Assembly: GCA_038727095.1 (NCBI GenBank)
Contig: JAVYWK010000042.1
Coordinates: forward strand, 1-12,762
Origin: Thermofilaceae archaeon
GTDB taxonomy: Archaea > Thermoproteota > Thermoprotei > Thermofilales > Thermofilaceae
Length of the DNA: 12,762 nucleotides
Reading direction: 5' to 3'
The stretch's first letter is position 1; each line of letters opens with the position of its first letter. The notes under the pieces are model-generated. The model made no database searches. It was not told the origin of the DNA and was given only the letters and a program-made list of their open reading frames with translations. Shown piece by piece: positions 1-12,762 of the stretch. Position numbers and translations under genes: made by a program.

Positions 1-531
1 CTGGAAGCTGAACGCCCCCGCGTCTCCGATCGCGCCAACCTTCCTGCCCCTGTAGGCTGAGCCGTGCGCTTGAGCAGCATCCTCAACCACAGCTGCCCCG
101 TGCTCGCGTGCGATCTTCAGGATCTCGTCCATCTCGGCCGGTATACCAGCGAAGTGGACGGGGACGATCAGCCTCACGTCCTTATGCCTCTCCACAACCC
201 TCTCAAGGTCGCCAGGGTCCATGTTGAGCGTCACTGGGTCAACGTCAACGAAGACGGGGACGGCCCTCCAGATCACAGCGGCCGAAGCAGTAGCGATGAA
301 CGTGTAGGCGGGTACGGCCACCTTATCGCCGGGCCTAACTCCGACCGCCAAGTAGGCGAGCATCAGTCCAGCCGTCCCGCTCGTAACCGCCACGCCGTGC
401 TTCGCATCGTGGTAGCGCGCGAACTCCCGCTCAAACTCCTCGACTAGGGGCGACCTCGTCCCCCAGCGCCCCGACCTGTAAGCCGGGAGCAGGTACGCTT
501 CATCCAGCGGATCAGGCCTAGGCCAGGCCAT
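1..531 (-). CDS. DegT/DnrJ/EryC1/StrS-family PLP-dependent sugar/cyclitol aminotransferase (3' end runs off the window)
   Basis: Not in the ORF track. Manual translation from ATG at 531-529 gives 177 open codons: MAWPRPDPLDEAYLLPAYRSGRWG...VEEFEREFARYH...VAVTSGTAGL...GVRPGDKVAVPAYTFIATASA...PVFVDVD...IVPVHFAG...VVEDAAQAHG...GDAGAFSFQ. All are hallmark DegT-family motifs. The PLP lysine would lie just beyond base 1. Confidence 0.95.
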   Translation of the reverse strand, partial: MAWPRPDPLDEAYLLPAYRSGRWGTRSPLVEEFEREFARYHDAKHGVAVTSGTAGLMLAYLAVGVRPGDKVAVPAYTFIATASAAVIWRAVPVFVDVDPVTLNMDPGDLERVVERHKDVRLIVPVHFAGIPAEMDEILKIAREHGAAVVEDAAQAHGSAYRGRKVGAIGDAGAFSFQ

Positions 532-757: not shown

Positions 758-2656
758 TTAGAAAGGTAAGAGCCACGCGGACTTAGAAATCATCAATATA
801 ACGACCGTTAACGCTAGGGCCAAACCTACTCCGCAGAAGAGTCCGGCGATTATCGCCCCTCTAACTCTCTCCCAATACGTTTTCCCTAATTTCTTTTCGA
901 GTAGTCTCCCGACAATAGCGCCCATGAAGTAGTTGATGGCGTAGGGAGGCGTCAGAGCTGCGCCAGCGGCGAAGCCTATCGGTGAAAAGGGTAGCCCGAG
1001 GTACCGGGCGAGTAGCGAAACAATTAGCATTGCCACCGATGATGCAAGAATGAGCTCCGGCCTGAAAATCTCGATCGAACGGGAGACCCAAAGGGAGAAG
1101 TTGAGCGAAGCAATAGGCCACGAAATCACCGTCCAGGGATAAACAGCCGATGGGATGGGCGCCATTGACCAGAAGAATTGGAGGAAGACGAAGCTGAGTG
1201 CTAACACCAGTGGAAGCGTCAACGCGTAAGCTTTGAAGTAGTCCATCGGCCTTACCTCGAGAAGCGTAGCCACCTTTATCCTATGCGTTATAATGCCGGC
1301 ACCCGTCGTGATCTTAGCGGGTACAAGCCACGGTTCAACCTCCCCAGGCTTTGTGAAAGCGATTAGGAATGCTTCTCTGATATACGGGATTTGAACCCCC
1401 AAGCCTACTTCGCCGAAACTGCGGGCAAGCAGAATCCCCTGGATAAAGGGGAAAAGGGTCCATGAGAGTAGCCAGAACCACCAGAGGCTTGGGTAGAGCC
1501 AAGTTGCAACGGCTGTACCGACAAGCGCACCCGTAAAGATCATCGCTAGGATAAATCCCAGCGGTAAGTACCCTTTCCTCTTGGCAGCCTCTGTTAAGCG
1601 CAGCAAGCTGGAAAACGCTGTCTTGAAGTACTTCAGAGATACGATGAGCGAAAAGAGCCCAACCCCAACTGATAAGCCGATTAGCGGGCTAGCCCAGAGA
1701 TTGAAGACCGAGCGCTGCCATAACCAGTCGATACGCGCGACAGGGGACCAATCCGCTTTCCAGCGGAGCAGCACTGGGTTCCCTGTAATATCGGCTAGGA
1801 GGAGGCCAAGCACATTGCCCACAACGTAGAACGCTATCGAACCTATGAAGATCCAGACGATGCTCTCCCACGGTATAAGCCACCCCACAGCGAATGTGGA
1901 AATATCGGTTGCAACCCCGATGAGGGCGCCAGGTAATACGCCGGCAAAGTATTCCGTCAAGTCCACCCACGGATACGGTATTAGCTGGATGCGCGTACCG
2001 ATGAGCGCTTCCGATAACTGCGGGAAGCCGTAAATGGCGAACTCGTAAAGGAAGCCGATTACGGCAGCCGTGGCAAAGGGTATCATCCTATCAGGGGTTC
2101 TTTCAGTTAAAACTTCGATTGCTTGAGCGTCGATGGGCGCAACAGGGAAGGGTAGGTTCTCAACTTCTATGAAAAGCTGGATAAAGATGAAGGAAAGCCC
2201 GATATCTATCAGCAGGCTACCCGCTGTGCTGAGGAGCAATACGAGTATAGGGGTTAGCCACTCTCGGGCAAAGAAAGTGCGTAGTTGCACAGCCCAGCTA
2301 TCGAGTGGGGGAGCGGCCCACGTAGGTATCTTATCGGCGATCCCGAAGAGTTTTGTGTAGGGGGCGTCGCGGAAGTAGAGGTTCATCAGTAACCCAACCC
2401 AGTAGAGGGCATCGAAAGCGACGATCTGTGACATGAAGTAGATGATATAAGCCTCTTGCTTCGTCACGAACCTCCCGGTGAACCTACCGACTTCAGTAAA
2501 GAGAAGGAGTGAGATGAAAACCGGGATGAACCTGGCTGGGTCAGGTAGACCGGTGAGGAAGCTCATATAGATCATTATAGGCGTTACAACGATGGCAGCG
2601 TAAGCGATTGAGAGGAGGGAAACCGTCGTTAAGCCCGGCTTGTACCCCTCACTCAT
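758..2656 (-). CDS. OPT-superfamily-like polytopic membrane transporter (632 aa)
   Basis: Highly hydrophobic with well over a dozen apparent TM segments. It has EVENLPFPVAP, resembling the OPT/YSL LxFP motif, plus PWVDLT and an N-terminal GLT motif. The start overlaps the upstream stop by 8 nt (ATGAGTGA). Confidence 0.8.
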   Translation of the reverse strand: MSEGYKPGLTTVSLLSIAYAAIVVTPIMIYMSFLTGLPDPARFIPVFISLLLFTEVGRFTGRFVTKQEAYIIYFMSQIVAFDALYWVGLLMNLYFRDAPYTKLFGIADKIPTWAAPPLDSWAVQLRTFFAREWLTPILVLLLSTAGSLLIDIGLSFIFIQLFIEVENLPFPVAPIDAQAIEVLTERTPDRMIPFATAAVIGFLYEFAIYGFPQLSEALIGTRIQLIPYPWVDLTEYFAGVLPGALIGVATDISTFAVGWLIPWESIVWIFIGSIAFYVVGNVLGLLLADITGNPVLLRWKADWSPVARIDWLWQRSVFNLWASPLIGLSVGVGLFSLIVSLKYFKTAFSSLLRLTEAAKRKGYLPLGFILAMIFTGALVGTAVATWLYPSLWWFWLLSWTLFPFIQGILLARSFGEVGLGVQIPYIREAFLIAFTKPGEVEPWLVPAKITTGAGIITHRIKVATLLEVRPMDYFKAYALTLPLVLALSFVFLQFFWSMAPIPSAVYPWTVISWPIASLNFSLWVSRSIEIFRPELILASSVAMLIVSLLARYLGLPFSPIGFAAGAALTPPYAINYFMGAIVGRLLEKKLGKTYWERVRGAIIAGLFCGVGLALALTVVILMISKSAWLLPF

Positions 2657-5600
2657 AGATCTTCACCAACTCAACTCCTCTCTTGATGTAAGTTGCCCTT
2701 TCTTGCGGAGAAAGAAGCCTCCACGTCAGAAACTGCTCTCTCAGCTCACGCACAAACAAGTCGCATGATTTAAGCCACGTATCGTGGGGACCTGATTCGC
2801 GCTTGGCCGTTACCAGCGTCATGTACCTGGCCTCTGTTGCACTCTTTAACAGAGCCACATCAACGTCCTGGACTATGTTCTGCTCGAATGGCGCGAGCCA
2901 AACCTTGGCCCGAACGCCGACTCTCCCCGGCTCCGAGTACGGAGCGTAACTCAGCACCGCAAACGTCCCCATTCTCTCCCTCCTGTTCTCAAAATACTCA
3001 CATAGGTAAATTGTGACGCCTACCACCATCTCCCTCTCCTTGAAGGTGAAGGGTAATGGTATCTCCCATACATCGCCGCGAGGCTTTGTGGGGATTTTCC
3101 ACTTCCTTTCGAGGGACGGTGTAACGATCCTCGAAACTTTCAGGAATGGGTATAGAGAAGCTAGGAGGACCATTAGAATCGCGAGTGCTAAGCCGACGAG
3201 TACAGACGAGCTCGAGTAGTTCATTCCAATAATGCCGCCCGTGAGCGCCGCGAAATTCGTTGCTCTTGCCATCACCACTCCAGCTGCATAGCCTAGAGCA
3301 ACACCAAGTATAGCGTACGTGAGTACCTCGGCGAGAAACATTCCACCCACTTGTGCCGGCGCAAGACCGAGAGCACTGTATGTTGATGCCTCCCTTAACC
3401 TTTCGTGGATGCTCCCTAGCACAGTCGTCATGAGCACCATCCCGGAGATGAGTAAGGGCACCACCATGAAGCTGAAACCGAAGAACTCGTGGATAAACCT
3501 CCCGCTGATAATGTGAGTTCGCCCTCCATACGAGACATAGACGTCCAAGCCGCTAAATACGTTGTAAATCTCCATCGCCGTCGATACGAGCTCTTCCTCG
3601 CTCACCCTCCCTTTTGGCATGAGCAGCACAGAGTGCAGTAAGGCTCCTGGGAGGTTCTTCACTAGCTCAGCGTTAATTACGATGATATCGCTCCATGATA
3701 ATCTGTAGCTCTCATCGATCCTCTGCATTGTTGCCACCGTTACGAGGTCGTAGGGCCTACCACCGTACGGCCGCTCTCCTACTCTATCCGTTACGTCGCG
3801 GGCGAGCATCTCTGCAAGAGAATCATCGAAGACACCAGCAACTATGAGCTCCTCTCCGGCAAAACGCACTGTATCACCCACATCAACATCGAGCGCGGAG
3901 GCGAGAGTTTTCGGCAGCAAACAGCTGCTTGCAACACGGCTGAATATCGTCTGGCTCAAGCCAAGCTCCTTGAGACTCGCGTTGAGCTCAGCAGGGGCTA
4001 ATCCCATGACTGCTCTGAAGACCACCGACCTCCCTCCGCTGGACAGAGTGAAATAATCTTCAATTAGAGGCGGATAGAGCCAGTAACGCGGGGCTACAAC
4101 ATACCTTCCCTTCGCGAAGTCTTCGAGCACGTCTAACAACAAGGGATCAAGAGGTTCGTTTGAGGGAGACTTTACCACAATCCCGTCAAACGTGGCGTGC
4201 GTTTCGTAGGTCGAAGCGGTGATTCTAAGCACTGGAACAACAGAGGTGAGCGCGACTAGCGACATCACTACCAGGATTATCGTGGAAAGGGTAAGAGCTG
4301 TCCGAAGAGGCCTTCGCCTCATGTTTTCTATGCCCGTAGACATCGCTGTGACGAAGAGGTCGAAAGTTTCCCTCTCTAGCGCATGCACTCCCAACCTAAT
4401 CCTCCTTACTTGCGAAAGGGATCTATTGAAGAGTATGATTAGGAAAAAGAGTGCTGGGATGGAGAGGGCGGCCATTATCACGCTTATGCTCAACGCGTAG
4501 GTGCTGTAAACTATGGTGAAACCTGGGTGCAGAAGGGCAAAAACTGAGAACATTACAGCTCCTAACGTGACGATGTAAGCTATGCGGACAATGCCTCCTC
4601 TCCCGAAGAAGAGTTTCTCCCCAAGTACTGCGAAGGGAACAATGAGTAGCATCACGATCAGCGTCGCAGAAGCAAAATCTAGGCTCATACCGCGAGTGCG
4701 CTCGTACAAGCGCAGTGCAGCGCTCCAGGCGGCCCAAGCGAACCCGAACTCCTTTTTCGCCGTATAGTTCTCCACCATCTTCAATAGCTCAACAGTAGTT
4801 GGGTCGCTAACCCCACCCGACACAGCCTTGCTGTAGCGATCCTTAGCAATCGCTAGCAGCTCTAGAGTATATATGAACGGAGTATTTGTGATAACTTCCG
4901 TGGAACCTGCCCTCCCTAGGCGGTAACCGTTCATAATGTCTTCAGTTGTAGAGTTGAGAAGTACTATTGCTCTTCTCTGATCCCCGCCCAGGCTAACGAT
5001 AGCGCAGATCCGACTCTCTGGTGGGGCGTAGAGGATTACGAACCGATTCGAAAAGTCAATGGTGTAGTAATAGGAGTCCGGCGTCGCTAAGTTCGGGTAA
5101 AAAATGGAAACCGCCGAAGGGTAAGGTGAAGTGTAGCGCGTGAAGGGTATCGGGAATGAGGCTTTTCCATATAAGTTGAATGTAGCAAGAGGCCATGGTC
5201 TATCAGGTACTGAAACGAGTGGAGCTATGAGAGCCGCTGCTCTGAATACCACTGTTCTTAGGACGATCCCCATCGAGAGCTTTGGAGGGTAGGGAGAGAA
5301 CCTCGCTAAGCCGTTCGGCCCCATGTCGGGTACGTAAGTTAGTCGACCTCCCTCTACTTTGTAGGCGTAAATCTCTATGTTCCCAATGAATATTTCTGGA
5401 GGTGCTAATCCGACTATCGTGGCCTTTCCATTTTCATCCGCCAGCTCGATTATTTTGGCAAAGGGTGGATCGTATTGAGTAACGGCGAGAGAGCCCATGA
5501 CATTGAAGTACCAGTCTCTCTTATGCACGACAACGAGGGAGTTAGGGACGGGTCTGTACAGCGTCGCGACGGTCGGATCGTACTCCACGACCTCGACGAT

Positions 5601-7100
5601 TGCTACATGGTATCCGAAGCCACCATTTACTGGATCGACCTCTATCCTCCTGGGCTTAATAGTGTCCCATGAACCCCTTAAAACAAGGGTAACATCGTTG
5701 AGTATCTTGTCAAGTACAAATGCGGCAAAGCGAACCTGGGGTTTGATGTTCTCCCAATTGATGTGGTCGTAGGTGTCGGCAGGTGTGAAGACTCTTGGCC
5801 TCTTGTCCTGAAACGTTAGGAAAGTTACTGCGGGAACCTTAGCGAGCTGGAAGGGTTCAGCATCTAGGTAGAAGGGTTGCGAGTACGATATCGCGTAACC
5901 CGGGTTAAAGCTGCGCAAGAGAACTATCCCGGTCGTGGCGTTGTAGTGCATTGCGTCACTTGCGATAGCGCGATAATCGCTTGGGTACTTCTGGTAGAAA
6001 TCTTTGATAATCTCCGCTAAGCTTGAACGGAAGTCGGTGTATAGGTTCATAGCGCCTTGCGTTCTATGACCGTAGAAGAAACCGCCAGGGTACACTACCA
6101 GCCGACTGTCACCGGATGATATGTCAAAATTCAGAACGATATAGGGGTAAACCGAGCTTCCAATCAGTTCGCTAAACATGATTTTCTCGACAAACCACCG
6201 TGCTCCTGCAAGCCCCTGCCAGTGGCCCGACAGAAATAGTAGCCAGACCGTGTACTTAGGTCGATACTCGCTCAGCAGGCGGGCCAGGTGAAGGAGGAGA
6301 CCCACGTTCACAGCCTCCTCAGCCCCTGGTGCGAGGGCAGGTACGATCGATCCCGAGTCCACGTGAGCGGTGAGGATCACGATCTTCTCCGGCTCGCTTG
6401 AGCCAGCGATCTCAACCAAGATGTTGTAGGCTGTTACTCTCTTCCACTCGTATCGCCCTTCGATTGTCGCGTAAAGGCCCTTCCTAGAAGCCTCTCTCAA
6501 GAAGTCCGCATCGGCCCCCTCTCTCACGTAAACCCTAGGGATATCGAGAGGAGCTAGCGCTACTTTCCTCATTGCGGAGTCTCTGTCTACAGCGGGTCCC
6601 AGGAATATCAGCGCCCTAGCACCCCTAGCGATCGCAGCACCCCAATCGGCGTCGAACTCCAACACAGCAATCTTGCTCCGAAGATCTAATCCAGCCAGCT
6701 CAGGAGGAGTGCAATGACCAGCGTATACCAGCTGTCCCGACACGTTGGTCGCTGCTCCAAGTGCGACGAGGTTTGGGTACATATGGTAGGCCCTTATAAC
6801 TGAAGCCCCCACTTTAATAGTAGCCCCGTAGTCGATTGGTACAGTCGCGTTAAACGCGAGAAAACGCGGTTTTAAGCCTGACGAAACAAGTGAAGAGTTT
6901 ATGTAGGCTAAGGATGCATAATACCCAGGGTACCCCGTAAAACGGCTCCCCAGTAGAGACAAAGCTTCCACATGCTGCTTAACTTCAGTTAGATTCAGTA
7001 CACTTGTGAGAGTACCTGGCTCGGCGTAAAGAGCAGAGGCCGTTAACAGCCAAAGCAAAATCTCAGCAGCGAACGTTGCTATGAGCAGCCTTCGCATCAT
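2649..7100 (-). CDS. Large membrane-anchored fusion: signal peptide + M28-peptidase-like domain with PA insert + TM bundle + MacB/FtsX-type permease + C-terminal soluble domain (1483 aa)
   Basis: N-terminal MMRR + hydrophobic stretch + ALYA cleavage-like site. M28 scaffold motifs are SRFTGYPG, NILVEIAG, IVILTAHVDS, APGAEEA, LNFD and TPADT. PA-domain pattern is SGQLVYAG...DLRSKIAV...ARGARALIF. MacB TM1 motif is RRPLRTALTL, and the FtsX motif is ERLREASTYSALGLAPAQVGGMFLAE. Confidence 0.9.
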   Translation of the reverse strand: MMRRLLIATFAAEILLWLLTASALYAEPGTLTSVLNLTEVKQHVEALSLLGSRFTGYPGYYASLAYINSSLVSSGLKPRFLAFNATVPIDYGATIKVGASVIRAYHMYPNLVALGAATNVSGQLVYAGHCTPPELAGLDLRSKIAVLEFDADWGAAIARGARALIFLGPAVDRDSAMRKVALAPLDIPRVYVREGADADFLREASRKGLYATIEGRYEWKRVTAYNILVEIAGSSEPEKIVILTAHVDSGSIVPALAPGAEEAVNVGLLLHLARLLSEYRPKYTVWLLFLSGHWQGLAGARWFVEKIMFSELIGSSVYPYIVLNFDISSGDSRLVVYPGGFFYGHRTQGAMNLYTDFRSSLAEIIKDFYQKYPSDYRAIASDAMHYNATTGIVLLRSFNPGYAISYSQPFYLDAEPFQLAKVPAVTFLTFQDKRPRVFTPADTYDHINWENIKPQVRFAAFVLDKILNDVTLVLRGSWDTIKPRRIEVDPVNGGFGYHVAIVEVVEYDPTVATLYRPVPNSLVVVHKRDWYFNVMGSLAVTQYDPPFAKIIELADENGKATIVGLAPPEIFIGNIEIYAYKVEGGRLTYVPDMGPNGLARFSPYPPKLSMGIVLRTVVFRAAALIAPLVSVPDRPWPLATFNLYGKASFPIPFTRYTSPYPSAVSIFYPNLATPDSYYYTIDFSNRFVILYAPPESRICAIVSLGGDQRRAIVLLNSTTEDIMNGYRLGRAGSTEVITNTPFIYTLELLAIAKDRYSKAVSGGVSDPTTVELLKMVENYTAKKEFGFAWAAWSAALRLYERTRGMSLDFASATLIVMLLIVPFAVLGEKLFFGRGGIVRIAYIVTLGAVMFSVFALLHPGFTIVYSTYALSISVIMAALSIPALFFLIILFNRSLSQVRRIRLGVHALERETFDLFVTAMSTGIENMRRRPLRTALTLSTIILVVMSLVALTSVVPVLRITASTYETHATFDGIVVKSPSNEPLDPLLLDVLEDFAKGRYVVAPRYWLYPPLIEDYFTLSSGGRSVVFRAVMGLAPAELNASLKELGLSQTIFSRVASSCLLPKTLASALDVDVGDTVRFAGEELIVAGVFDDSLAEMLARDVTDRVGERPYGGRPYDLVTVATMQRIDESYRLSWSDIIVINAELVKNLPGALLHSVLLMPKGRVSEEELVSTAMEIYNVFSGLDVYVSYGGRTHIISGRFIHEFFGFSFMVVPLLISGMVLMTTVLGSIHERLREASTYSALGLAPAQVGGMFLAEVLTYAILGVALGYAAGVVMARATNFAALTGGIIGMNYSSSSVLVGLALAILMVLLASLYPFLKVSRIVTPSLERKWKIPTKPRGDVWEIPLPFTFKEREMVVGVTIYLCEYFENRRERMGTFAVLSYAPYSEPGRVGVRAKVWLAPFEQNIVQDVDVALLKSATEARYMTLVTAKRESGPHDTWLKSCDLFVRELREQFLTWRLLSPQERATYIKRGVELVKIYE

Positions 7101-7110
7101 ATTTGGGCAT

Positions 7111-7140
7111 CTAAATCACAAATATAAACTTATTTTTCTT
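7111..7140 (-). promoter_or_regulatory. BRE/TATA promoter for the 1483-aa + 632-aa operon
   Basis: Minus strand reads AAGAAAAATAAG-TTTATATT (TATA at 7128-7121), 21-28 nt upstream of ATG 7100. Confidence 0.7.
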
Positions 7141-7164
7141 TCGAATCTTCATAAAAAGGTATTT

Positions 7165-7184
7165 AGAGAAAAATTTTTATATAA
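7165..7184 (+). promoter_or_regulatory. BRE/TATA promoter for the second OPT-like gene
   Basis: AGAGAAAAATTTTTATATAA with TTTATATA at 7176-7183, ending 20 nt before the in-frame GTG at 7204. Confidence 0.7.
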
Positions 7185-7203
7185 CCCCGATACAATTACT
7201 GAT

Positions 7204-9147
7204 GTGAGCGAATCTAAGGGAGCCGAAGTTAAGTACGCTAGAGGTCTTACACCTTTTACGATCGCTTTGATCGTTGTGCTGGGCGTAGCGATGTTTTACG
7301 TTAACTACCTGATGTGGTGGCGCAGAGGGGTTACACTGGAACCCTTCTTTGGCGGTAGGATTGGTGCTCCGATATACCTACCATGGGGCTTTATATGGTT
7401 CCTAGCGATACTAATGGCGGGGCTTAAGAAACTCAGCGTGGCAGAAATTGTCGTGCTTGTCGGGGCTCTCTACGTAGTGATGGACAGCGGCTTCTTCTCC
7501 TTCTGGCTCGAACCATTGGTGGTTGCTTATCACGCACAAACTGAGCCGTCTCTAGCCCAGTTGCTAGAGTACATACCTAGCGCATGGGCACCCAAGGATC
7601 CCAGGCTTGTTGCCAGGATATTCAGCGGGGGCGCCAGCGTACCGGGTGAAGTCGTCGGCCCATTACTACTGCAAAGCGTGTTCATGTTCATATTCATTCT
7701 CATGTGCATTTTCACGGCTCAAACGATGATCAGACCATTCGTTGAGGTAGAGAGACTAACGTTCCCCGCAGTTATGCCAGCGGTGCAAGTACTCAGGATG
7801 GGACAGGAGAGCACTTTAACCAGCTTTGGGAGGAGCAAGCTGTTCTACATCGGCTTTATCATAGGATTGATAATCGCGCTTCAATCAACTTTGAACTACA
7901 TCTGGCCGGCCTTCCCAGTGTTCTTCGCGTGGGGGCAAATCTACCTCTCCGGATGGGACGCCTTCCTGAAAGGCATTAACCCCAGCATAATGGAGTGGTG
8001 GATGTTTATCCCAGCCGACACGATAATGTTCTTCCTCGCTCCAATCGATGTAACAGCCAGCGTGGCCATATGGACCGGTTTCAAATCCCTCATATGGCCC
8101 TTCATAGCCGTCGGAGCCGGCTTGATATCACCGGGCGCTAGCCCCGACGCTGGTCCCATCAAGCCAGGAACATTCTCATCCCTCCATGTAACATTCGCTC
8201 TAGGCATCTGGTCTATTATTTTCGGCTGGAAGACATGGTCCGATTCGTTCAAGCGCCTTTACAAGAGAGCTGCAACGGAGCCTGGTAGGCTTGATGAACG
8301 ATTGATATGGACCGGACTGCTGGGCAGCTACTTTGCCTACCTACTCTTCTTTGCGGCGCTCGGAGCACACGCAGGCTTCGTACTGCTATTCTTGATCCTC
8401 TTATACTTTGCCTTAATCGGCCACGCGAGAATCTGGGGTGAAACCGGGCAATGGCCCGCTGTCGCCGGTGTAGACTTGCCGCGTCAGTTAACGCTTACAG
8501 TTGCTTACGCCAGCGGGGTTCCAAACCCATGGCCCAGCACTACGTGGTGGGCCACTAAAGCAGCTACCCGCATAACCCACCACATTCCGCAGGCAACCTG
8601 GTTCCCATGGGCCGTTCTTTCCACCTACAAGCTAGCGAGAGACACGGGAACGAGTGAGAGGGATCTGTTTATCGGGCAGCTTCTAGCTGCTTTCCTGGCG
8701 AGCTTCATTGGCCTCTACCTTGGTTTAGCACTTCTCTACGCCTACGGCGCTGATACCGTGCTCACTGGGATCTGGTATGTCAAGGCGAGGCCTGCGGAGA
8801 TAACTAGAGTAAGAGAAGTGGGAGGTGTAATCAGCGCGGAGGGAGTACTCGATGCGACGGGTATAGGCCACTTCATCGCGGCTTTAGTGATCGTCGGGGG
8901 ACTATGGTTCATGAGAGCGAAGTTCCCATGGTTCTTCTTCACTCCTGTTGCGCTCTTCTTCTACAGCGGAATGTGGTTCCTAAGCTCGTTCCCCGCGCTC
9001 ATACTCAAGCTCCTAGTGCTAAAGGTCGGCGGTATGACCTTCTACGAAAAGTACGCTGTACCCTTTGCTATTGGTCTCCTCGTTGGAATCAGCTTCGGGG
9101 CCTTCCTCTTAGGGAGCATAGCGGCCTTCTATATACCGCCTGTTTAA
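7204..9147 (+). CDS. OPT-like / DUF6785-DUF6784-type polytopic membrane protein (about 647 aa; true start probably GTG 7204, not ATG 7081)
   Basis: Many TM segments. It carries EVERLTFP (OPT-like motif), IPSAWAP, ARIWGETG and C-terminal KVGGMTFYEKYAVPFAIGLLVG, a pattern I recall from DUF6784-type C-termini. The first 41 codons of the track ORF span the AT-rich divergent promoter and overlap the opposite gene. Confidence 0.8.
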   Translation: MSESKGAEVKYARGLTPFTIALIVVLGVAMFYVNYLMWWRRGVTLEPFFGGRIGAPIYLPWGFIWFLAILMAGLKKLSVAEIVVLVGALYVVMDSGFFSFWLEPLVVAYHAQTEPSLAQLLEYIPSAWAPKDPRLVARIFSGGASVPGEVVGPLLLQSVFMFIFILMCIFTAQTMIRPFVEVERLTFPAVMPAVQVLRMGQESTLTSFGRSKLFYIGFIIGLIIALQSTLNYIWPAFPVFFAWGQIYLSGWDAFLKGINPSIMEWWMFIPADTIMFFLAPIDVTASVAIWTGFKSLIWPFIAVGAGLISPGASPDAGPIKPGTFSSLHVTFALGIWSIIFGWKTWSDSFKRLYKRAATEPGRLDERLIWTGLLGSYFAYLLFFAALGAHAGFVLLFLILLYFALIGHARIWGETGQWPAVAGVDLPRQLTLTVAYASGVPNPWPSTTWWATKAATRITHHIPQATWFPWAVLSTYKLARDTGTSERDLFIGQLLAAFLASFIGLYLGLALLYAYGADTVLTGIWYVKARPAEITRVREVGGVISAEGVLDATGIGHFIAALVIVGGLWFMRAKFPWFFFTPVALFFYSGMWFLSSFPALILKLLVLKVGGMTFYEKYAVPFAIGLLVGISFGAFLLGSIAAFYIPPV

Positions 9148-9158
9148 AACATAAAATA

Positions 9159-9250: not shown

Positions 9251-9316
9251 CCGTATTTGCTGAAAACATATGTCAGGGAGCTCGGTCGATAGCTTATGCA
9301 AGGGGTAGAGCTTTCT

Positions 9317-10678
9317 ATGAGGGCATCTGTTGCACGCGTGACTCCGCGGTATGACGTGATTGTAGCTGGTGGCGGTGTAGCTGGAGTCTCTGCTGCTGTG
9401 GTAGCCAGCAGAATGGGGGTTAGGGTGTGTCTACTGGAAGCCTCGGGCACACTGGGCGGAACAGTTACGCAGGCTCTTGTTACCCCCTTCATGAAGTGGG
9501 TGAGTGGAGGTAAGCCCGTTGTCGCCGGTATTTTCCAGGAGTTCTTGGACAGGTTAGCGAAGCTGGGCGGTATAGATGTGAGGCAGCCCGCGATTTTCGA
9601 GCCTGAGTTGCTTAAGGTGGTAATGCTTGAGATGTGTAAAGAAGCAGGTGTAGACGTATGGTTTAACGCTACAGTTGTTGGAACCAAGGTTGAAGGCCAT
9701 AGCCTCAAGGCCGTGTCTGTTTACACGAAAAGGGGTTTGATTGAGGTTGAAGGATCAGTCTTTGTTGACGCAACGGGAGACGCTGATCTGGCGGAGTTAG
9801 CTGGTGCTCCAATCTCGATGGGTAGGGAAGAGGATGGGCTTGTGCAACCCGTGACGGTGATGTTTAAAGTGGGCGGCATTAACTTCACGAGGTTCCTCGA
9901 GTACCTTGAGCATCACCCCGATGAACTGGCTCCCTGGGTCAATGTCGAGCATCTTAGAAGAGCTATCGAAAGGGGAGAGCCATTCAGTTTCGCCGGTCTA
10001 TACGGCTTGGTAAGGGAGGCTAGAGTTAAGGGTGAGTTCCCCGAGATACCGGGTATCGATTACATTGCACCTCTTGCGGCTTTCCCTGATAAGGGTTACG
10101 CAGTCTTCAACAATACCAGGGTCTGCGGGATCGACCCACTTGATTCGAAGCAGCTGGCAAGAGCTACCCTAGAAGCCTACCGCCAAGCACTCGAGATCGT
10201 TAGGTTCCTTAGGAAGTGTGTCCCAGGCTTTGAGCACTGCTACCTTGTGCAGCTTAGCTGTAGGATCGGTGTTAGAGAATCGAGGAGGATCGTCGGTGAA
10301 CACGTGATCAAGTTGGAGGAACTTATCAACTGCGTTGAGTTCCCCGATACAGTGGCTAGAGGATGCTACGCCATCGATGTGCACCCCTTAAGGCCAGGGG
10401 AAGAGGCAATCTTTATCCCAATACCTGAGGGCAAGAGCTATACGATACCTTACAGAGCGCTCATCCCCCTAAGAGTTGAGGGTCTTCTCGCTGCGGGTCG
10501 CTGTATCTCAGCGACGCACGAAGCACTGGGTGCGGTTAGAGTAATACCTACTGCGACAGCCACAGGTCAAGCAGCTGGAGTCGCAGCTGCTCTCTCAGTC
10601 ATCGAAGGGGTAAAGCCCAGGGAACTAGACGTGTCTGAAATCCAGCAGATACTCCTTAAGCAAGGTGCCATTATCTGA
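9317..10678 (+). CDS. FAD-dependent oxidoreductase (FAD_oxidored/PF12831-like); alternative start ATG 9296
   Basis: YDVIVAGGGVAGVSAA dinucleotide fold, LLE...LGGT, FVDATGDADLA, IGVRESRRIVG, YAIDVH, Y.IPYRALIP and AAGRCISATHEA..AVRV....ATGQAAG. An SD-like AGGGGT at 9301-9306 precedes ATG 9317. Confidence 0.9.
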   Translation: MRASVARVTPRYDVIVAGGGVAGVSAAVVASRMGVRVCLLEASGTLGGTVTQALVTPFMKWVSGGKPVVAGIFQEFLDRLAKLGGIDVRQPAIFEPELLKVVMLEMCKEAGVDVWFNATVVGTKVEGHSLKAVSVYTKRGLIEVEGSVFVDATGDADLAELAGAPISMGREEDGLVQPVTVMFKVGGINFTRFLEYLEHHPDELAPWVNVEHLRRAIERGEPFSFAGLYGLVREARVKGEFPEIPGIDYIAPLAAFPDKGYAVFNNTRVCGIDPLDSKQLARATLEAYRQALEIVRFLRKCVPGFEHCYLVQLSCRIGVRESRRIVGEHVIKLEELINCVEFPDTVARGCYAIDVHPLRPGEEAIFIPIPEGKSYTIPYRALIPLRVEGLLAAGRCISATHEALGAVRVIPTATATGQAAGVAAALSVIEGVKPRELDVSEIQQILLKQGAII

Positions 10679-10814
10679 TTTTTCCAAGGTGGAATGAACA
10701 ATACTAGGAGAAGGATTTAGGATGAATATAAATAAACATAAAGTTTTCCTTTAAAATTGTGATTTAGGCTTATTTATAATTTTAATCCAAGTGCATCTGC
10801 CTCCAAAAGTACTT

Positions 10815-11175
10815 ATGATGGCCATTGACGCTTCACTATCGTGGAATTGCCGCTTAAGGAGGAAGGCTGGGACGAGGCATTGAAGTATATGCGCACTGGA
10901 GTGATGTCCATGGACTTCGTAGCTAAATAGGCGCTGAACGCGATCTGGAGAGGGCATAACGCGCGAGGGATCCAACTTGATGCTCAAAGCCCTGGCGATT
11001 GAGGGGGTCAGCTAATCTGAAGGACGAGAAGGGTCCACCTCGAGGCGGCCATTGAGATCGCCTCTACGGGTGAATTACAGTGCGAGATGCGTTCTACATC
11101 GCCCTAGTAAAAGCGAAGGTCTTAGGCCCCCCACTTTGGACGCGTAGCGAGCAGCTTCGCATGTGAGCTCACAAG
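10815..11175 (+). pseudogene. vapC: Eroded VapC/PIN-domain toxin pseudogene
   Basis: Joining frames gives MMAIDAS / IVELPLKEEGWDEALKYMRTGVMSMDFVAK*ALNAIWR / ...HLEAAIEIA / ITVRDAFYIALVKAK / PTLDA*. The PIN motifs IDAS, KExxNAIW, ITxYDAxYIALA and TLD appear in the correct order. There are several frameshifts and TAG stops at 10928-10930 and 11145-11147. The 3' end is approximate. Confidence 0.85.
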
Positions 11176-11289
11176 CACCGGGTTCGTTTCCCAACTCAGC
11201 TATACCAGTGAAAAATGGGCTTGCCTGAGATTCGATGCCCGCTTTGCTTCCCGCCGCAACTGGTCGGAGGAGCGCGCTGCCTTTCTACT

Positions 11290-12687
11290 CTAAACGACTA
11301 CGGCTTTTATGTCGAGCAGCTTTGCGGCCATCTTTAGGGGCTCTACGATGTCGCCGTGGATCATCGAAGCATGGTGGATGAAACCTTCCTCAATCAGCGT
11401 TGTGTAAACCTTATCCAAGTCGGGGACCTCAACCCAAGCCCAGCTACCTCTAAACTCTCCCGGTTCTTCAACTATTCTCCCTCTCGTTACGAACAGCTTG
11501 AACTCGCCATCGTACTCGACGAGCCTACTGATGGTCACTTCACCGGGCTTGGCGCGCCCGTCAACCGTCCCGTAGCAGCGCTCGGCGCCGAGGGCTCTGT
11601 GCATCACGCCGTGGAAGCTCAGCCTGCAACCTCCGCTGCAGAGGGATAGCGGCAGGTTCCCGCAGTGCCAGGCTAGGAACACGTTGTCTCTAGTCGGGTG
11701 CCTGATCGTCCAATCGATGAAGAAGGGCACCGTTTTGCCCAGCGATGCGGCGTACTGGAGGGCCATCGTCAGGACGCCGTAGACATCGACCTCGCATGCC
11801 ATCATTACGCCCTTATCGGTCAGCCTACCCATCACGAGGCAGGGAGTCACGCCGAAGTAGCGCTCCAGCTCGGTCCAGCAGCGCACCCCCATGCCGACCA
11901 GCTTCCTCCTCTCCGCCAGCTCGCTCAACACGACCTCAAGCTTCGCCAGCTTTAGAAGGGCTTCTCGGGTGACTCCGCTGACGTCCAGCTGAGCCTCGAT
12001 CTCCCCGATGGTCTTAGCAACCCTAGGGTCGCTGTCGCTCAGCCGCCTTGCCTCCTCCACGACCTCGATAAGGTCGAAGTGAACAACCCTCTGGCTGAAC
12101 TTCGCCGCCATCACCGCCTCGTTAAACGTGACGGTCTCAAACCTCTCAGGCCTCGGGCCCACGGCTCCCACCTTAGCGCCGACGAAGGTCTTCACGGCGT
12201 TAACGGCCCTAACGAACGAGTCGAAGCTCCGCTTGAACTCGGGATCCTCGGGGTAGACAATACCGCCGAAGACGAACGGAATCTTCCTCCTGTAGAGGGC
12301 CGAGGCCAGCGAGAGAGTCCCGCAGAATGAGTCTGAGCGGCGGAAGCCCCCGGGCAGCGGGGGAGGCTCCTTCGTGGCGTAGATCATCACCGGCTTCCTC
12401 AGCAGCTCGGCAACCCTCGCCCCAGCAAGCTCGTCGCCGAAGGTGAGCGCCGCGATGACGATGCTGTCAACCCTTTCCCGCTTGAAGAGCTCCGCCACAG
12501 CCTCCGCGTCATCGTCGTCTGAAACCAGCCCCAGCTTCGTATCACCCTCGCCCGGGTAGACAAGCTCCACGATGTCGCCGAAGCTGGCTCTCACAGCCTC
12601 GATGAATCGGTGCTTCAGCTCGCGAGCCCACTCCTCATCGAAGGGTACCCTGTGGAGAGGGACAAACCCCACCTTTACTTTCGTCAC
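11290..12687 (-). CDS. L-fucose/L-arabinose isomerase-family protein (465 aa)
   Basis: Motifs TFGDE, RRSDSFCG, VRCWTE, MMACEVDVYG (metal-ligand region), AWHCG and GFIHHASMIHGD. GTG start with GGAGG 8 nt upstream. Substrate cannot be assigned. Confidence 0.9.
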   Translation of the reverse strand: MTKVKVGFVPLHRVPFDEEWARELKHRFIEAVRASFGDIVELVYPGEGDTKLGLVSDDDDAEAVAELFKRERVDSIVIAALTFGDELAGARVAELLRKPVMIYATKEPPPLPGGFRRSDSFCGTLSLASALYRRKIPFVFGGIVYPEDPEFKRSFDSFVRAVNAVKTFVGAKVGAVGPRPERFETVTFNEAVMAAKFSQRVVHFDLIEVVEEARRLSDSDPRVAKTIGEIEAQLDVSGVTREALLKLAKLEVVLSELAERRKLVGMGVRCWTELERYFGVTPCLVMGRLTDKGVMMACEVDVYGVLTMALQYAASLGKTVPFFIDWTIRHPTRDNVFLAWHCGNLPLSLCSGGCRLSFHGVMHRALGAERCYGTVDGRAKPGEVTISRLVEYDGEFKLFVTRGRIVEEPGEFRGSWAWVEVPDLDKVYTTLIEEGFIHHASMIHGDIVEPLKMAAKLLDIKAVVV

Positions 12688-12695
12688 GCTGGGAT

Positions 12696-12700
12696 CCTCC
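12696..12700 (-). promoter_or_regulatory. Shine-Dalgarno site of the isomerase gene
   Basis: GGAGG on the minus strand, 8-nt spacer to GTG at 12687. Confidence 0.7.
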
Positions 12701-12762
12701 CCCTCCCGTACTAAAGCGTTGTCTGGGGCTTCGTAAGCAATGAGTTGGGAGGGGGCTTCTCT

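Follow-up and report, generated by a model that had tools for sequence, protein, structure and literature searches.

A conserved archaeal module of a giant MacB/FtsX-type protein and two OPT-like membrane proteins, with candidate ATPases encoded elsewhere in the genome

What energises a giant MacB/FtsX-type membrane protein whose operon encodes no ATPase? The question is raised by a 12,762-bp stretch of DNA (hereafter, the window) from a Thermofilaceae archaeon, which is an entire contig, one of 52 in a 1.86-Mb archaeal metagenome-assembled genome (MAG). It carries three genes for large membrane proteins, here called A, B and C (Table 1): B joins a peptidase-like ectodomain to a membrane module of the MacB/FtsX type known from ATP-binding cassette (ABC) systems, and A and C, on either side of it, are OPT-like. 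The initial annotation of the locus had proposed a three-component uptake system in which B is a surface receptor or scaffold that passes its substrate to an A/C heteromer energised by an ion gradient, with no ATPase taking part. Here, we find that the three genes form a conserved unit and that, while the operon has no ATPase, the system as a whole probably does.

The linkage of the three genes is directly observed, both within and between genomes. Searches of the window's own genome with tblastn and family hidden Markov models (HMMs) recovered six A+B modules, on contigs C42, C8, C10 (twice), C18 and C16. C adjoins five of the six, the module on C16 being A>B> only, and the modules come in five gene orders, viz. 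<A<B|C>, <B|A>C>, <A|B>C>, A>B>C> and <C|B>A>; outside the modules, a C gene stands alone on C31 and a C-like gene is divided between the ends of C5 and C40. The paralogues are just 20-33% identical and their flanking genes differ; hence, the unit is the three genes and not the neighbourhood. Beyond this genome, a survey by sequence pattern and tblastn, with one genome per species, yielded 63 loci, of which the 42 with at least 2.5 kb on each flank were used for counts of gene content. A is present in 35 of these 42 loci, in 33 of them no more than 300 nt from B and often overlapping or abutting it, and A and C are both present in 27; eight of the 35 A-bearing loci have no detectable C within 10 kb. 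The remaining seven, without A and C, comprise one fragment and six loci from a clade with a B of 1556-1592 aa. The carriers include Thermofilales, Bathyarchaeia, Brockarchaeota, Desulfurococcaceae, a Korarchaeia-labelled MAG, Armatimonadota and Planctomycetota, with up to 11 B matches in one related genome, and the linkage persists between classes, and in two bacterial phyla, where the proteins are ~25-30% identical. A, B and C thus form a conserved unit.

B begins with an N-terminal membrane anchor, followed by an ectodomain of ~760 aa, three transmembrane (TM) helices, the MacB/FtsX module and a cytoplasmic tail of 140 aa. The module has the canonical arrangement of one TM helix, a periplasmic core domain and three further TM helices. 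A model of residues 770-1483 (pLDDT 82.6) finds MacB, LolC/E, HrtB, YtrF, YbbP and BceB as Foldseek matches, and the domain between TM1 and TM2 has the MacB-type core (Porter/Sabre) fold, matching the periplasmic domains of MacB and LolC/E (3ftj, 5lj8, 5udf, 6f49). By these structural criteria, as judged from sequence and model, B is assigned to the type VII (MacB/FtsX-type) ABC superfamily. Across 53 B homologues, conservation on the cytoplasmic side peaks in the helix between TM2 and TM3, with E1233, R1234, G1245 and P1248 invariant (motif ER.RE...G..P). The MacB literature describes this helix as the major coupling helix, which docks the nucleotide-binding domain (NBD) and transmits its movement (PMC5985334). 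The alignment and the model both indicate that B retains the NBD-coupling helix of type VII ABC proteins. An invariant PSLERKWK...P.GD.W stretch follows TM4, ahead of the tail domain, which is modelled with high confidence as a strand, a helix, four strands and two helices; this domain has no Pfam or NCBIfam match, no Walker A motif and no usable ESM Atlas result.

The ectodomain of B includes a region related to M28 peptidases (53.1 bits against a Pfam cut-off of 21.3). Its closest relative in the PDB is the aminopeptidase 2ek8 (E 7.5e-26), and the B profile also matches the non-catalytic transferrin receptor 1 and nicalin (E ~1e-7 to 1e-5). We compared the B homologues with the zinc-ligand and catalytic positions that we take to be those of M28 enzymes such as AAP and SGAP. 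The position of the catalytic Glu holds His, and that of the zinc-binding Glu holds Tyr or Trp, in all 53, an invariance that is partly built in, since 47 of them, from other genomes, were retrieved with a pattern containing GH[WY]; the six paralogues of the window's own genome, found by tblastn, likewise all have His in place of the catalytic Glu. The last zinc-binding His is kept in none of the 53 homologues, the first is retained in 24, and the bridging Asp is present in 13. The two-zinc site of an active M28 enzyme (His, Asp, Glu, Asp/Glu, His) and its catalytic Glu are accordingly not found in B, whose M28 domain appears from its residues to be a catalytically dead pseudo-peptidase. This inactivated domain most likely serves in binding or handling.

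The two remaining proteins are distant homologues of each other and related to the OPT superfamily. C matches DUF6785 (PF20581; E 2.4e-20, 73 bits against 25) over profile positions 9-498 of 498, and its model (pLDDT 81.3, pTM 0.88) retrieves from the PDB, by Foldseek at E <= 0.001, only the barley Yellow Stripe 1 transporter HvYS1 (7wst and 7wsr), with E 5e-9, TM-scores of 0.65/0.70, probability 1.00 and 12-13% identity. C is hence modelled with an OPT/YSL fold, a relationship that surfaced only at the level of fold, as the A and C profiles have no meaningful match by sequence in the PDB. The A of the window has no Pfam match, and so does not reach the gathering score of OPT (PF03169), which is matched by 12 of 49 A-family members (best E 3.9e-17), among them the own-genome paralogue L004:10171-12108 (45.6 bits against 25.8). 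A and C align with each other over 592 columns in hhalign (probability 99.7%, E 3.4e-25) and have in common the motif E-x-E-(K/R)-L-P-F-P. By transitivity, and not by its own score, A is thus a divergent OPT relative. HvYS1 is an OPT-family proton symporter that forms a homodimer and works by an elevator-like mechanism (PMC9691689). Given that homodimer, a heterodimer of diverged paralogues is a reasonable inference, and by this analogy A and C most likely pair in that way. Some C relatives have further regions: DUF6784 is found at the C-terminal end of C paralogues, though not in the window's copy, and a C-like protein of Planctomycetota (L055:6012-9410, L072:5018-8416) has 1132 aa and a long N-terminal extension, the L055 copy matching DUF6785 (E 2.4e-82) plus DUF6784 far more strongly than archaeal copies do.

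To this point, the initial annotation stands up well. Its three-gene unit is confirmed by the six shuffled modules of the genome and by the neighbourhood survey that it had called for, in which the M28-FtsX fusion kept its linkage to OPT-like genes (A in 35 and A plus C in 27 of 42 loci). Its OPT-like pair agrees with the Pfam OPT matches of the A family, the A/C alignment and the fit of the C model to YS1, its pseudo-peptidase with the loss of the catalytic Glu and most zinc ligands, and its statement that the module lacks prior characterisation with our finding no literature on DUF6785, DUF6784 or the combination of M28, FtsX and MacB. FtsX, the OPT family and archaea came together in a single paper, a census of bacterial transporters.

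Its claim that the system dispenses with an ATPase is another matter. We know of no FtsX-family protein that works without an ATPase. The initial annotation was right that the window has no ABC ATPase or solute-binding protein gene: none of its six long open reading frames (ORFs) matches ABC_tran or a solute-binding family in Pfam, and the Walker-A pattern [AG]x4GK[ST] is absent from all six frames, an absence that is weak as a stand-alone statement given that the window is a whole contig. The window is collinear, at 99.2% identity, with a 125.6-kb contig of the relative G002, in which no ABC domain occurs in additional flanks of 4.6 kb and 2.6 kb. Elsewhere in the genome there are three MacB-type ATPases (Table 1), all with intact catalytic motifs. 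The type-1 copy, an orphan with no permease adjoining, is 74% identical to the type-2 copy on C2, which follows a gene for a small FtsX protein. In a tree, the type-1 clade (support 98/98) stands apart from the copies located behind the small FtsX gene, placing type-1 and type-2 ATPases as separate old paralogue groups. Across the order, the orphan ATPase (L076-L087, e.g. C11:7332-11063) mostly has the same THUMP and RLI/ABCE1 neighbours, and its protein identity of 79-99% is unusually high for a transporter ATPase.

The co-occurrence of these ATPases with B is again a plain observation. Among 21 relatives, orthologues of the orphan ATPase (79-99% identity, or partial) occur in exactly the 15 B-bearing genomes and in none of the six without B (completeness 91, 90, 99, 95, 52 and 98%), while other MacB-type ATPases (43-54% identity), found in nearly all 21 and in five of the six without B, provide a built-in control. 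In an even set of 251 Thermoproteota genomes (ATPase at E <= 1e-85, B at E <= 1e-60), the ATPase occurs in 62 (62-80% identity, usually two copies) and B in 53; both are present in 52, B only in one, the ATPase only in ten and neither in 188. The sole B-only genome is a 0.6-Mb, 70%-complete MAG. In the families of mixed composition, the same genomes are positive for both (two of ten in f13, five of six in f26 and six of ten in f36). The small FtsX is a single-copy gene in 57 of the 251 genomes and is present in 48 of the 53 B-positive ones, at least one of the five counted as misses having a diverged version.

Occasional linkage is seen as well. In the complete genome G066, the small FtsX, type-2 and type-1 ATPase genes stand in tandem, 3.2 kb from an A-C-B operon and with GH57 genes around them; in G104 an ATPase is 2.2 kb from B, and in L039 the small FtsX lies two genes from C. 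In the Armatimonadota locus L054, Pfam detects genes for an FtsX permease and an ABC ATPase downstream of B and A and co-oriented with them; L043 and L067 have an ABC domain equally far away. An ABC ATPase occurs within 10 kb of B in ten of the 42 loci; as adjacent partners of B these were set aside, that of L026 belonging to a phosphonate-type importer and that of L054 following a separate FtsX permease. Complex prediction of B residues 770-1483 with the orphan ATPase gave weak support, scoring 0.41, against 0.00 for the best of three controls, with runs agreeing in at least 46% of contacts and a partner pLDDT of at least 76. Of 80 solved complexes, 58 attain the mark used, as do 2 of 110 mismatched pairs; scores of up to 0.60 are seen in only 7 of the 80 and in both mismatches that passed. 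Taken together, the retained coupling helix, the co-occurrence of the ATPases and their occasional linkage indicate that the 'no ATPase' reading is probably wrong.

The genes around the modules bear on what is transported. The most recurrent neighbour family is GFO/IDH/MocA (21 loci), and glycoside hydrolases (GH57, GH130, GH42, GH4, rhamnosidase and GHL10) and sugar-catabolic genes (PfkB, UxuA, galactokinase and fucose-isomerase-like genes) recur near modules. This context weakly favours sugars or glyco-conjugates, rather than peptides, as substrates. Three further families recur: URO-D-like proteins beside the module in 12 loci (e.g. L005:5439-6509), a ~500-aa family without a Pfam match in nine loci, often directly by C (e.g. 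L005:6611-8077), and a ~780-aa family, also without a Pfam match, in five (e.g. L005:16711-19062). Such families are candidates for additional components or for enzymes that process the substrate.

We propose, with roughly even confidence for and against, that B is an ATP-driven mechanotransducer of the type VII ABC kind, which is energised in trans by a shared motor and hands nutrients to the A/C pair. The motor would comprise two paralogous MacB-type ATPases, possibly with the 211-aa small FtsX, encoded away from the modules. ATP binding and hydrolysis would shift the coupling and stalk helices of B (mechanotransmission), and the ectodomain would capture a nutrient from outside, most likely an oligosaccharide or glyco-conjugate and less likely a peptide, and press it onto the A/C pair, which would carry it over the membrane; each paralogous module would have a separate substrate. 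More speculatively, the small FtsX could supply a second FtsX half, with one ATPase type per half, which would explain why the many B genes are matched by just one small FtsX and a pair of ATPase paralogues. Uptake as such is supported by the several paralogues per genome and the recurrent catabolic neighbours. The broader idea that these modules constitute a new class of uptake machine, in which one shared motor serves up to ~10 exchangeable giant FtsX heads that load OPT-fold heterodimers, is a tentative extension that we at present doubt more than we believe.

Several points weigh against the proposal. In the window's own genome, ABC_tran occurs nowhere on C8, C10, C18 and C42, four of the five module-bearing contigs (on the fifth, C16, the nearest is 13.6 kb from the module), and in the 42 related loci the nearest ABC domain to B is 2,957 nt away. 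The orphan ATPase occupies a conserved housekeeping neighbourhood (THUMP, RLI) in the window's order, ten genomes have the ATPases with no detected B, and these enzymes, together with the small FtsX, may constitute an independent system or serve other orphan long FtsX proteins. The co-occurrence tally of 52 genomes treats related genomes as if they were independent, ignoring kinship, and the passing B/ATPase prediction may reflect likeness to the solved MacB and LolCDE complexes. The first four TM helices of B have an FtsX-like topology without sequence likeness to an FtsX repeat; hhalign finds no likeness between its three post-ectodomain TM helices and its own FtsX domain (probability 0.4%), because of which the idea of B as a 'double FtsX' was dropped on sequence grounds. 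The flanking genes are heterogeneous, many being housekeeping or without an assigned role, which tempers the glycan or aminosugar substrate of the initial annotation, plausible as the neighbouring genes make it. Known type VII ABC systems are not described as importers in the cited part of PMC5985334, and work in export or in the envelope would be closer to precedent. Finally, we infer, from the evidence above, the physical complexes of A, B, C and the ATPases, as well as the direction of transport, the substrate and the ATPase that B binds.

Some of these points favour an arrangement along the lines of the initial annotation, in which B would be a passive receptor or scaffold without an NBD partner, its cytoplasmic tail domain standing at the NBD's place, and A and C would import by the proton gradient alone. 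In archaeal loci, B has no adjoining ABC ATPase (2,957 nt is the shortest distance in the 42), and the nearby one in L026, the one locus scanned with Pfam in this regard, belongs to the phosphonate-type importer. The window is without a Walker A motif, the ATPases occur in ten genomes without B, and the conserved 140-aa tail is lacking in classical FtsX proteins. OPT and YSL carriers are, moreover, proton-coupled and need no ATPase (PMC9691689). Nevertheless, no cytoplasmic element of B is better conserved than the NBD-coupling helix, the ATPases are present in 52 of 53 B-positive genomes with all 21 relatives in agreement, and ATPases or the small FtsX lie near the module in G066, G104, L039 and Armatimonadota; type VII ABC systems are themselves described as ATP-powered in the cited parts of PMC5985334 and PMC12646458. 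We therefore regard a purely ion-driven system as improbable: the lack of an ATPase that the initial annotation had expected of a neighbourhood survey holds for adjacency in archaeal loci, whereas genome-wide MacB-type ATPases track B, and working on the ion gradient alone is not supported.

The same motor could also drive an export or envelope machine, in which A and C move a compound out, or B extracts it from the membrane and by ATP pushes it outward or to the S-layer or surface, like MacB, LolCDE and YbbAP, the candidate cargo being glycans, glycolipids or surface-protein precursors. Extracytoplasmic work, and never import, is what the cited parts of PMC5985334 and PMC12646458 describe for characterised type VII ABC systems, and there are biosynthetic neighbours (the window's DegT aminotransferase, a GT2 glycosyltransferase, PMT_2 and a sugar nucleotidyltransferase). 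Against this, the characterised OPT and YSL proteins in the cited part of PMC9691689 are importers, and both the six or more diverged paralogues in a 1.86-Mb genome and the frequent catabolic neighbours (glycoside hydrolases, sugar kinases, dehydratases and GFO/IDH/MocA) fit substrate-specific uptake better, making outward transport in our estimate an unlikely role. That A, B and C are functionally independent and linked by chance or local accident, as could be argued from the C-less module, the lone C genes (C31, C5/C40), the eight A-bearing loci without C and an interaction that is putative, is strongly disfavoured and most improbable, as their adjacency survives five gene orders in one genome and is kept between classes, and in two bacterial phyla, at ~25-30% identity, and in many loci B and A touch or overlap.

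Two groups of B relatives stand beside the module proper. In a sister clade, B-like proteins of 1556-1592 aa are intact in six loci (L014, L018, L021, L025, L026 and L058) and broken up in L062; they lie at ~14.5-16.5 kb in each locus, in genomes labelled Calditenuaceae, Nitrososphaerota, Thermoproteota or plain 'archaeon', and the L026 protein matches FtsX only in Pfam. The sister-clade gene is always followed by two genes for conserved proteins of 339 and 296 aa, which by their consensus sequences resemble one membrane and one soluble protein and have no Pfam match. These were considered as A-like and ruled out, as they have no match to the A or C HMMs at 1e-5. In family f36, B-like matches of 1559-1593 aa accompany one ATPase match and the small FtsX. 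The second group comprises four other long FtsX proteins of the window's own genome, with no A, C or ABC ATPase gene adjacent; an M28 domain was seen in none of them, the Pfam scan covering the 960-aa one only. These orphans may be further clients of the trans-encoded ATPases.

Within the window, the ORFs, the 103-bp divergent spacer and the coupling of B to A were all correctly read by the initial annotation, as were the neighbouring FAD oxidoreductase, sugar isomerase and aminotransferase genes. The 647-aa product of C read from its GTG codon at 7204 is identical to public gene calls named 'DUF6785 family protein', from which start the spacer of 103 nt follows; it is 106 nt if B begins at its second ATG, as in one public record. 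The spacer is likely the promoter region for B and C. A is annotated publicly as 'hypothetical protein'. Metatranscriptome contigs 95-99% identical to the window span the A/B junction (2360-3081) and B (3057-7061) and cover parts of C (7594-7994 and 8816-9148), which attests presence in an RNA library and is no proof of transcription; in the RNA-library run X13 there is little or no cover in bins 427-852 and 9799-11076, holes that prove nothing.

Table 1. Positions of the module genes, the parts of B and the neighbouring genes in the window, and of the candidate ATPase and FtsX genes on other contigs of the same genome
Feature	Position	Strand	Description
Gene A	758..2656	-	632 aa, ORF; polytopic membrane protein, putative divergent OPT superfamily member
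Gene B	2649..7100	-	1483 aa, ORF; M28, MacB_PCD and FtsX domains
Overlap of B stop and A start	2649..2656	-	8 nt; putative translational coupling
Cytoplasmic C-terminal domain	2652..3080	-	B residues 1341-1483
FtsX domain, TM2-TM4	3126..3473	-	B residues 1210-1325; PF02687, E 4.1e-14, 53.1 bits against 25.5
Coupling helix, TM2-TM3	3372-3410	-	B residues ~1231-1243; model residues 462-474
MacB_PCD	3819..4301	-	B residues 934-1094; PF12704, 28.9 bits against cut-off 27
M28-like ectodomain part	5742..6965	-	B residues 46-453; Pfam Peptidase_M28 at 226-453, E 4.4e-14
Divergent B/C spacer	7101..7203	.	A+T-rich; TATA-like box ~25 nt upstream of each start codon
Gene C	7204..9147	+	647 aa, GTG start; DUF6785 membrane protein, predicted OPT/YSL fold
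DegT-type aminotransferase	1-531		window neighbour
FAD_oxidored gene	9296-10678		460 aa; window neighbour
Fucose-isomerase-like gene	11290-12687	-	window neighbour
MacB-type ATPase	contig C4		after classical MacB_PCD-FtsX permease
Type-2 MacB-type ATPase	C2:90961-91689		after 211-aa small FtsX gene
Type-1 orphan MacB-type ATPase	C11:8829-9563		between THUMP, CGI-121 and RLI genes, no permease adjoining
Small FtsX protein	C2:90283-90918		211 aa, four TM, no ectodomain, single-copy
Other long FtsX proteins	C12:8523-13901, C12:38476-41532, C18:5494-8376, C8:50358-53627		1792, 1018, 960 and 1089 aa; loci L008, L009, L005

The rest of the window calls for a few remarks. The fucose-isomerase-like gene at 11290-12687 has sulfoquinovose isomerase as its top NCBIfam match, at 157 bits and far short of the cut-off of 700, and a paralogue adjoins another module (L003:18059-19462). 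In the relative G002 (L092:6678-8061), the counterpart of the FAD_oxidored gene is two overlapping ORFs of 268 and 204 aa, possibly by a frameshift or assembly error. Rfam and tRNA scans of the window returned nothing, and ORFs in the 611-bp gap at 10679-11289 do not exceed 78 aa. Near-identical DNA is present in hot-spring metagenomes. The ends of the window (1-531 and 11222-12762) have a G+C content of 0.56-0.63, against ~0.52 elsewhere, and in the DNA run X1 they are on separate contigs at ~4x the depth of the middle part, which suggests that the flanking genes are common to more abundant relatives without the module. A chimeric window, a possibility raised by the G+C and depth of these ends, is ruled out by the 99.2% collinearity with the G002 contig.

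If the broader idea of a shared motor with exchangeable heads holds, a primary (ABC) transporter and one with a secondary-carrier fold would be joined in one hybrid, and type VII ABC proteins would have their first role in import, a categorically new combination. A conserved, multi-copy coupling of the two kinds, B being present in 53 of the 251 genomes sampled, would represent a major unannotated part of how heterotrophic Thermoproteota feed. DUF6785 and DUF6784 would gain a fold and a context, and the modules would offer a handle for assigning substrates to the carbon use of Bathyarchaeia and Brockarchaeota. For annotation, the lesson would be that an ATPase-less operon can mislead when the motor is shared and encoded elsewhere.

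Several known systems provide points of comparison. The SusC/SusD loci of Bacteroidota likewise have many capture-plus-translocator paralogues, often by glycoside hydrolases; the analogy is one of many paralogous sets near sugar genes, without homology and with another membrane and energy source. In group II ECF transporters, as with shared ATPases of the MsmK/MalK type, one energising set, made up of two different ATPases plus a small membrane protein and encoded once, serves many scattered components. The logic here would be similar, with six B modules and four long FtsX proteins sharing two ATPases and a single small FtsX, though the families are unrelated and the sharing is deduced from gene counts and co-occurrence alone. 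Like transferrin receptor 1 and nicalin, B keeps the M28 fold without the metal and catalytic residues, in its case fused to a transporter-type membrane module. With regard to the OPT/YSL family (PF03169, TC 2.A.67; HvYS1, 7wst), the C model superposes on HvYS1 and some A-family members match Pfam OPT, whereas identity is only 12-13%, the window's A has no Pfam match and C is filed as DUF6785; further, in contrast to the HvYS1 homodimer, A and C are two diverged paralogues linked to an FtsX giant. An OPT-family gene, Smar_1400, has been reported in Staphylothermus marinus (PMC2678158).

The closest comparison is with the type VII ABC systems (MacAB-TolC, LolCDE, FtsEX-EnvC, YbbAP-TesA, BceAB and HrtBA), with which B shares the four-helix module, the core domain and the coupling helix, and whose kind of ATPase, with intact motifs, co-occurs with it. 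In contrast to them, archaeal B has no fused or same-operon ATPase, adds an N-terminal anchor, a ~760-aa ectodomain with a dead M28 domain, three TM helices and a cytoplasmic tail, and has many paralogues per genome. It is also tied to two OPT-fold proteins, a kind of partner that goes unreported in the cited parts of PMC5985334 and PMC12646458. Type VII ABC proteins have so far been exporters, extractors or hydrolase activators of the bacterial envelope, and OPT proteins stand-alone proton symporters. The novelty here lies in the linkage of type VII ABC machinery to OPT-fold partners and in a probable motor that is encoded in trans and apparently shared.

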